This document shows, one piece after another, positions 24,570 through 25,990 of a stretch of DNA of 25,990 bases. The translations under genes were made by a program, and so were the position numbers. The stretch is from positions 1 through 25,990 of the IMG/VR virus record IMGVR_UViG_648276652_000014; one strand, written 5' to 3'. The notes beneath the pieces were generated by a model, which saw only the letters and a program-made list of their open reading frames with translations, did not search any database and was not told where the DNA came from. This DNA is from a virus. Lineage: Duplodnaviria; Heunggongvirae; Uroviricota; Caudoviricetes. Every line of letters begins with the position of its first letter. Position 1 is the stretch's first letter.

Positions 24570-24994
24570 TGGAACTGTGGCTGACGGTGAACGGTAAACG
24601 CACCTGCGCCAGCGCACCGCTGGATCCGCTGACCCGCGCCGTGGTGATTTCCCTGTTTACCTGGCGGCGGGCGGAGCCTGATGACAACGCCGACGTCCCG
24701 ATGGGATGGTGGGGGGATACCTGGCCTGCGGTACAGAATGACCGTTACGGCTCCCGACTGTGGCTGCTTCAGCGCAGCAAACTGACCAATCAGCTGGTGC
24801 TGACGGTAAGGGGGTATATCCGCGAATGCCTGCAATGGATGATTGATGACGGCGTGGTGTCCCGTATTGATCTGGATATCCGCCGCACCGGGATTAATGA
24901 ACTGGGTAACAGTATCACTCTCTGGCGTCGTGACGGACCGGTAATGATTTCTTTTGATGATCTGTGGAGTGCGATAACGCATGGCGGACAGTGA
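24566..24994 (+). CDS. Baseplate wedge protein (Mu gp46 / GPW-like)
   Basis: 142 aa in conserved position. Ribosome-binding site GGAGG. Confidence 0.7.
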   Translation: MMELWLTVNGKRTCASAPLDPLTRAVVISLFTWRRAEPDDNADVPMGWWGDTWPAVQNDRYGSRLWLLQRSKLTNQLVLTVRGYIRECLQWMIDDGVVSRIDLDIRRTGINELGNSITLWRRDGPVMISFDDLWSAITHGGQ

Positions 24995-25730
24995 ATTTCA
25001 GCGCCCGACGCTGGCAGAAAATATCAGTATGCTCCGTAACGATTTATTCGCCAGGCTGGACGTCAGCGACACGCTCCGGCGCATGGATGAAGACGTGCGG
25101 GCAAAGGTGTATGCGGCGGCGCTGCATACGGTTTACGGTTACATCGATTATCTGGCAATGAACATGCTGCCTGACCTGTGCGATGAGTCCTGGCTGGCGC
25201 GACATGCTGCGATGAAACGGTGTCCGCGCAAGGGGGCCACGGCTGCCAGCGGGTATATGCGCTGGGAAGGTGTCAGCGATGGCCTGAAGGTGACTGCCGG
25301 GAGTGTTATTCAGCGCGATGACCTGGTTCAGTACACGGCAACTGCCGATGCAACCAGCTCCGGTGGTGTCCTGCGCGTGCCGATCGCCTGCTCAAGTGCA
25401 GGTGCGGTCGGTAACGCTGACGACGGTACGGCATTAATCCTGGTCACGCCGGTGAATGGTCTGCCGTCTTCCGGTGTGGCAGATACCCTGACTGGCGGAT
25501 TCGATACTGAAGATCTGGAAACGTGGCGCGCCCGCGTCATTGAGCGGTATTACTGGACGCCTCAGGGCGGGGCTGACGGGGACTATGTTGTCTGGGCTAA
25601 AGAAGTGCCCGGCATTACCCGCGCATGGACATACCGTCACTGGATGGGAACGGGGACTGTCGGTGTAATGATTGCCGGCAGTGACCTGATTAATCCCATT
25701 CCGGAAGAATCAACGGAAACGGCGGCAAGA
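24981..25730 (+). pseudogene. Baseplate J-like protein (Mu gp47-like), C-terminus removed by IS insertion
   Basis: The first ~250 aa read like a baseplate J protein. From 25731 the frame continues into IS terminal sequence (CQRQDYWPFF...), so the native C-terminus is missing. Confidence 0.75.
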
Positions 25731-25990
25731 TGTCAACGCCAAGATTATTGGCCGTTTTTCGCCATTTTTAATGTCCGCTATTGGTCATTAATGTTGTCCG
25801 CTTTCCGCCATTTCATCATCACTGATTGGCGTGGCGTTTTTTGCCAGCACTCCCGCTTTGCGTTTTTCCTTTAACCGGTAGCTTTCTCCTTTGATGTTCA
25901 GTGTGGTTGAGTGGTGGAGCAGTCGATCCAGGATTGCCGTTGCCAGCACGTTATCGCCGAACATCTCTCCCCAGTCGGCGAACCCTTTAT
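25731..25990 (-). mobile_element. Second IS21-family element, partial (terminus plus the 3' end of istB); distinct from the element at 167-2120
   Basis: Starts with TGTCAACG, like the terminus at 167. Holds the istB C-terminus, which differs in sequence from the first element's IstB. Confidence 0.75.
25788..25990 (-). CDS. istB: IstB-like transposition ATPase, C-terminal part (gene runs off the window)
   Basis: Reverse-complement translation gives ...[56 protein letters not shown] and a stop at 25788-25790, homologous to the 3' end of the istB at 233-1015. Confidence 0.85.

Follow-up and report, generated by a model that had tools for sequence, protein, structure and literature searches.

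The baseplate J (gp47) gene of an SfV/SfII-like prophage in Escherichia coli MS 119-7 is interrupted by a copy of the IS21-family element ISEc62. Very probably the element entered the gene by ordinary transposition and split it, and the prophage should not build tails. The DNA analysed, hereafter the window, is 25,990 nucleotides long, and its positions 1-25,990 are the entire draft contig ADWU01000052.1 of assembly GCA_000179155.1. The ADWU accession belongs to E. coli MS 119-7 (HM339), a strain obtained from the colon/rectum of a patient with Crohn's disease (PMC8741296). Both ends of the contig fall in ISEc62, a repeated element, and the window therefore ends at a break of the draft assembly inside a repeat.

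Interruption of the J gene

The 5' part of the baseplate J/gp47 gene lies on the plus strand at 24981..25730 and comprises codons 1-250 of 352, which hold the Baseplate_J domain and the Baseplate_J_M region. The encoded residues are identical (250/250) to the intact 352-aa J of E. coli MLI107, to which the ORF is unrelated afterwards, and the half gene has 0/750 nucleotide differences from the uninterrupted J of three assemblies (L037, L038 and L039). The ORF at 24981 matches PF04865 (E = 4e-44) over profile positions 2-193 of 255, and the J of an intact relative covers positions 2-255. When 24500-25990 was compared with 5426 complete E. coli genomes by megablast, 1073 genomes matched the J region as far as query position 1231, which corresponds to window position 25730, and none matched beyond it. 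The exact boundary between J and the IS is 25730/25731. J is preceded by gp45 (24021-24569) and gp46 (24566-24994), and gp48/ymfQ and a fibre gene follow it on a second contig, described below.

Past the boundary the reading frame continues into the IS, which yields a chimeric ORF of 297 aa at 24981..25874 on the plus strand (EFK43695.1 / WP_001349558.1 / WWX33269.1), made up of J residues 1-250 and 47 residues from the IS end. The Baseplate_J_C domain (PF26079) is absent from this ORF, which has the 47 IS-derived residues instead, and maps to a separate ORF on contig ADWU01000106.1. An earlier note, drawn from the letters of the window, had placed the end of the J-like sequence near 25730 and had attributed it to a second IS21-family element. 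Both points stand, as identity to the intact 352-aa J stops after codon 250, at 25730, and an ISEc62 terminus with 0/260 differences begins at 25731.

Identity of the inserted element

The istB-side terminus of ISEc62 occupies 25731..25990 on the minus strand, running from element nucleotide 2125 down to 1866 at the contig end. Compared with the ISEc62 copy of E. coli E24377A (L002 3504-5628), whose first 260 nt it matches, it has 0 differences. The element was identified through that copy, which RefSeq labels 'IS21-like element ISEc62 family transposase' plus IstB. The reference copy (NC_009801.1 3358105-3360229) is 2125 bp long and encodes an IstA of 390 aa and an IstB of 264 aa. All parts of ISEc62 that are visible in the draft, 260, 202 and 166 nt, are without differences from it, and the ISEc62 end sequence of the window was found in 98 of the 5426 E. 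coli genomes.

The sequence TGTCAACGCC begins at 25731, and the two ends of the element form an inverted repeat, the istB-side end reading TGTCAACGCCAAG at 25731 and the istA-side end, on ADWU01000106.1, reading TGTCAGCGCCAATG (reverse complement). The E24377A copy and the element described here have the same TGTCA termini, and both also have a short target duplication. Five other complete copies of ISEc62, 2124-2125 bp in length, are flanked by duplications of 4-5 bp, whereas here the duplication is 6 bp and lies in a phage baseplate gene.

The 3' end of istB was located on the minus strand at 25788..25990. It comprises 66 codons (25791-25988) and a stop codon (25788-25790) that sits 57 nt from the IS terminus, as in the E24377A reference copy. 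The encoded tail matches PF01695 (E = 7e-18, profile positions 195-238 of 238) and NF038214 (E = 2e-15) and is 57% identical to the IstB of IS100 encoded at 233-1015, which bears out the earlier reading of an IstB C-terminus on the reverse strand from 25788 that is related to, yet different from, the first IstB of the window. The same reading had recognised in the right-hand IS the terminal motif of the IS at 167, and TGTCAACGCC does share TGTCAACG with the IS100 terminus TGTCAACGACGG. IS100 / IS100kyp thus resembles ISEc62 in family, in this terminal octamer and in the visible tail of IstB, but differs in its length of 1954 bp, in its IstA of 340 aa, and in bounding the other side of the prophage without a duplication. 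The sequence agreement behind these statements about J and ISEc62 is far beyond chance.

A weak terminator-like hairpin, GCCAAGATTATTGGC followed by a T-run, is present at 25738..25761 just inside the IS end, on the plus strand, the J-sense strand. A terminator consensus scan was run on the identical E24377A copy, in which the hairpin lies at L002 3511-3525, and sites in ISEc62 were no more numerous than in shuffled sequence. A role of the hairpin as a terminator is only suggestive.

The second junction and the J gene restored in silico

The closest uninterrupted relatives (L037-L039) supplied the J C-terminal allele for a look-up of the remainder ORFs. The remainder ORF is EFK43019.1, a 116-aa protein recorded as 'HMPREF9346_05443 [E. 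coli MS 119-7]', and it is encoded on the 1599-bp contig ADWU01000106.1 (L042) of the same assembly as the window. Remainder ORFs built from the MLI107 J allele (P0001, P0002) were rejected, as they are unrelated J pseudogenes that arose via deletion, frameshift or stop, none of them with ISEc62.

Read in the orientation of the window, ADWU01000106.1 carries at 1-202 the last 202 nt of ISEc62, on the istA side, with 0 differences and ending ...GCGCTGACA. Directly after this end, at 203-208, stands GCAAGA, the right copy of a 6-bp target duplication whose left copy lies directly before the IS at window 25725..25730. GCAAGA occurs once in the uninterrupted J genes of relatives. The last 102 codons of J follow at 209-517, then an intact gp48/ymfQ (508-1092; 194 aa) and the start of the tail-fibre gene (from 1096). 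The start of gp48 overlaps the J stop (508 vs 515-517), and the second ORF, in which 12 IS-derived residues are fused in frame to J 249-352, overlaps the gp48 start as well. Target duplications of IS21-family elements are 4-8 bp long, and 6 bp falls within this range. A 4-bp duplication (AAGA), predicted from the five other ISEc62 copies, was ruled out.

When window 24981-25730 was joined to 209-517 of ADWU01000106.1, the resulting 1059 nt showed zero differences from the uninterrupted J of the three assemblies. This identity, together with the 6-bp duplication, indicated a simple ISEc62 insertion without loss of phage sequence, with the element antisense to J and placed between codons 250 and 251. 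From the duplication we infer that the two contigs would be contiguous across one full-length ISEc62, of which 260 and 202 nt are visible at the site. The other IS end, the duplication and the rest of J, which the earlier note had sought to the right of the window, were thus found on ADWU01000106.1. The core of that note's reading, in which a second IS21-family element cuts J and the prophage is probably tail-defective, is supported, with some refinement: the insertion split J without deleting any of it, gp48/ymfQ was left whole downstream, and the tail-fibre gene is disrupted by a separate lesion, an IS1203-like element.

The left boundary of the prophage

ISEc62 sequence is present at the left end of the window too, not only at the right. 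An internal fragment of istA at 1..166 on the plus strand (element nt 597-762, up to codon ~220) is cut by IS100. It is 100% identical to the ISEc62 of E24377A and matches NF033546 (E = 9e-16). A complete IS100 of 1954 bp follows at 167..2120 on the minus strand, with IstA (340 aa) at 1012-2034 and IstB (260 aa) at 233-1015, and its ends read TGTCAACGACGG... and ...CGTTCGTGACA. Phage sequence starts at 2121, directly adjoining IS100, with the 3' part of a PerC/yfdN gene on the plus strand (2121..2404; PF06069), of which tblastn covers residues 68-164 only, the first ~67 codons being absent from the contig. The flanks of IS100 are therefore hybrid, with ISEc62 istA on one side and the 5'-truncated phage gene on the other, and the element at 167-2120 has no target-site duplication (TCCAC vs CGGAA; 162-171, 2116-2125). 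IS100 copies in related prophages have duplications of 5-6 bp, and the window IS100 shows 11-17 differences from copies that have them. Because this IS100, unlike the related copies, lacks a duplication, the left boundary is best attributed to a secondary deletion, inversion or recombination and not to a simple insertion.

The left arm of the prophage is absent from the contig. In E. coli SC476, the best relative, 13 further CDSs (7 kb) lie upstream, including an integrase at tRNA-Thr, cI/cro-like regulators and replication genes; on the MS 119-7 contig the integration/immunity/replication arm is not contiguous with the late genes. An IS-mediated event at this boundary, be it deletion, inversion or recombination, would have removed or displaced that arm.

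The same boundary bears on whether the halves of J still lie next to each other. There is a modest chance, well short of an even one, that the simple insertion into J was followed by a rearrangement, either an inversion or a recombination between copies of ISEc62 or IS100, after which the J halves were no longer adjacent. In one variant, all the ISEc62 pieces, those at either end of the window and the one on ADWU01000106.1, would derive from a single copy into which IS100 inserted and which was later inverted. Consistent with this, the istA fragment at 1-166 is opposite in orientation to the right-hand copy and abuts the duplication-less IS100 with its hybrid flanks, and the layout of ISEc62 nt 1-762, IS100, yfdN'...J' and ISEc62 nt 2125-... 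would, by its geometry, fit a single inversion of a nested J::ISEc62::IS100. The three contig breaks inside ISEc62, however, imply at least two genomic copies, so a second independent copy suffices, and the data are compatible with an inversion but none of them require it. The perfect duplication means that the original event was a simple insertion, and it says only that much about later adjacency. Simple insertion of ISEc62 into J, with the two halves on either side of one element, is the reading followed below.

IS100 has also been inserted independently, in the same orientation, in related prophages of DETEC-E223 (L010 1708-3661) and FDAARGOS_1077 (L011 1708-3661). The sites lie in PerC/yfdN, 33 bp from the window junction (duplication ATTTCC), and in the adjacent replication gene (duplication CTCAT), and a third genome (JB2, H87) also matched. 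The PerC/yfdN-replication region may be a recurrent IS100 target. In E24377A (L002 2191-6121) ISEc62 interrupts the istB of IS100 with a 4-bp duplication (CAGC), whereas here IS100 interrupts the istA of ISEc62, and the reciprocally nested elements share the terminal octamer TGTCAACG. This could hint, on two cases only, that IS21-family elements preferentially target one another.

Prophage type and further lesions

Phages SfV, SfII, SfI, SfIV and vB_EcoM-689R6, which have lambdoid early genes, an HK97-like head and a Mu-like contractile tail, share ~97-98% nucleotide identity with the window over the head and tail modules. The order gp45-gp46-gp47(J)-gp48-fibre is the same in the SfV-group phages and in the prophage of the window. 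In these phages J is an unbroken ORF of 352 aa and the int/regulatory arm is complete; neither is true of the window.

SC476 covers 2121-25730 at 98.5%, and comparison with it shows that, of the 32 phage genes lying between the two IS junctions, 31 have their full length. The exception is the first holin-family gene (6732-7118; 128 aa in relatives), in which an extra T near 6900 (GGCATTATTTT vs GGCATATTTT) inserts 1 nt and shifts the frame after about codon 57. Among 220 complete E. coli genomes with this gene none (0/220) matches it perfectly, the best reaching 99.7%. The frameshift could be real decay or a draft sequencing error, and in this sequence the lysis genes are accordingly not all intact, as the earlier note had taken them to be. 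The ORFs in moron positions, 5853-6638 (261 aa, between Q and the holins) and 8727-9233 (168 aa, after the lysis genes), gave no Pfam or NCBIfam match and are both 100% identical to SC476.

Beyond gp48/ymfQ the tail-fibre gene carries a lesion of its own. From position 1380 of ADWU01000106.1 it is joined to an alternative C-terminal segment of the Pin-invertible region, reversed vs L037, and it breaks off at 1521 against one end of an IS3-family element (TGAACCGCCCCGGG...), annotated elsewhere as IS1203-like, of which 79 nt are present before the contig stops.

The slot between the tape-measure and DNA-circulation genes is variable among these prophages. The window has no gene in it (21557-21616), MLI107 and L031 have a hypothetical gene of 176 aa (L001 2526-3056), and other relatives have a tRNA_anti-like gene (PF12869) on the minus strand (L033-L035 7040-7486). 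The slot looks like a moron insertion site.

Predicted consequences for tail assembly

The intact J aligns with the structure of Mu gp47 (9KI1_H, E = 5e-38, residues 7-351 vs 4-359), which the solved baseplate shows as one chain of 360 aa. In Mu, each wedge contains two copies of gp47 (BW2), which build the core three-helix bundle and trifurcation unit together with gp48 and account for the main contact between neighbouring wedges (PMC11915804). Mup47 of Mu has been equated with P2 gpJ, T4 gp6 and TssF of the T6SS (PMC6300606). In the functional phage SfV a 352-aa orf19 (1059 bp) is followed by the gp48 homologue and fibre genes. Mu gp47 is a full-length homologue at the same position in the gene order; in the prophage, by contrast, the split after residue 250 has left the C-terminal domain of J on a separate ORF. 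Since the J of the window lacks Baseplate_J_C, since Mu gp47 has this role in the wedge, and since functional SfV has a 352-aa J, we strongly infer that the prophage would be unable to assemble tails.

The course of events may be pictured as follows. ISEc62 (2125 bp), with its IstA DDE transposase and IstB AAA+ helper, would have inserted by ordinary IS21-family transposition into J of the SfV/SfII-like prophage, duplicating the 6 bp GCAAGA where it entered between codons 250 and 251. The J ORF would be left as residues 1-250 plus 47 IS-derived residues, with Baseplate_J_C lost. The remaining 102 J codons, gp48/ymfQ and the tail-fibre gene would now lie 2.1 kb downstream, uncoupled from J translation, and because the gp48 start overlaps the J stop, translational coupling of gp48 to full-length J would be lost. 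Late transcripts would need to cross 2.1 kb of antisense IS, which may have a polar effect on the downstream genes. With no full-length J/gp47 as wedge protein, tails would not be assembled.

This consequence presupposes that a J cut at this point does not work. That J is functional when it ends near residue 250, or when it is split in two pieces, so that the tail still works, is very improbable. The cut does fall at the Pfam boundary between Baseplate_J_M and Baseplate_J_C, both halves persist as ORFs, and other assemblies have ORFs of ~250-262 aa and 89-94 aa, in one case via a stop at codon 251. However, 1073 E. coli genomes with the gene match right up to the insertion point, all relatives examined, functional SfV among them, have one uninterrupted 352-aa ORF, and Mu gp47 is a single 360-aa chain. 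Split versions are rare, derive from frameshifts, deletions or nonsense codons and are pseudogene-like, and the N-terminal fragment here bears 47 foreign residues. The earlier note had left room for phages whose J proteins naturally end near residue 250; the intact relatives examined, SfV included, all have 352 aa. If both chimeric ORFs were expressed, a two-piece J might assemble and the prophage might keep working tails, an outcome to which we give equally little credence. A J gene split by ISEc62, with tails that should not be built, is the reading retained.

Split J genes in other assemblies form a group of their own. In the Logan assembly of SRR25083407 (L017 3227-4285), and also in L012, L014, L022 and L025, frameshifts, or a change of codon 251 from CAA to TAA, have broken J into one ORF of ~250-262 aa and another of 89-94 aa; codon 251 marks the boundary at which the IS sits here as well. 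Several further contigs carry deletions that join the integrase region directly to the J C-terminus, and one 89-aa C-terminal J fragment was named 'YmfP protein' by its source. Enterobacterial genomes commonly contain J-remnant ORFs of cryptic prophages, with a C-terminal J fragment ahead of ymfQ and the fibre genes, but those inspected arose by deletion, frameshift or nonsense mutation and not by ISEc62.

Age of the insertion and authenticity of the junction

The J::ISEc62 insertion was absent from all 5426 complete RefSeq E. coli genomes, and an exact-match scan did not find the junction in GTDB representative genomes. Because the insertion is absent from the 5426 genomes, and neither the IS ends nor the restored J differ from other copies and from uninterrupted relatives, respectively, the ISEc62 insertion is, on the sequence comparison, very recent. 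Intact neighbouring genes are expected next to so recent an insertion and do not speak for selection on the morons or the lysis genes. The retention of these genes, which the earlier note had singled out, is instead what a young insertion predicts, the restored J having 0/1059 differences.

The 297-aa chimeric ORF is recorded on one indexed contig only, ADWU01000052.1 (GCA_000179155.1). An identical 297-aa chimera has also been deposited as WWX33269.1 from a contig of 5,096,813 bp, which is outside the RefSeq complete-genome collection searched and is probably a closed genome, from MS 119-7 itself or from a sister strain. In Logan, re-assembly of SRR088908 yielded a 23.7-kb contig that reproduces the J::ISEc62 junction; the 14,143 nt examined from it are 99.98% identical to window 11614-25759, ending 29 nt into ISEc62. 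An assembly artefact, in which a chimeric join at a repeat conceals a J that is intact in the real genome, is very unlikely: although this is a 2010 draft assembly with contig ends in repeats and one probable indel elsewhere (in the holin gene), the break coincides exactly with the IS terminus, another contig has the reciprocal junction and its 6-bp duplication, the junction recurs in the independent Logan assembly of SRR088908, and the same chimeric protein is annotated on the 5.10-Mb contig.

Significance

The element (ISEc62), the gene family (baseplate J/gp47) and the phage type (SfV/SfII-like) are all known, and the case is one of ordinary prophage decay. What is added here is that the second junction was recovered, with its 6-bp duplication, and that J could be restored exactly in silico; this matters little beyond the annotation of strain MS 119-7. 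It serves as a reminder that windows that end inside an IS usually mark an assembly break and that the other half may be elsewhere in the same draft. In the Crohn's-associated strain MS 119-7, insertion sequences of at least three families are dismantling the SfV-like prophage: ISEc62 has entered J, an IS1203-like element has entered the tail-fibre gene, and IS100 lies at the boundary of the early region. Given these three lesions, the prophage should not be counted as inducible or transducing.
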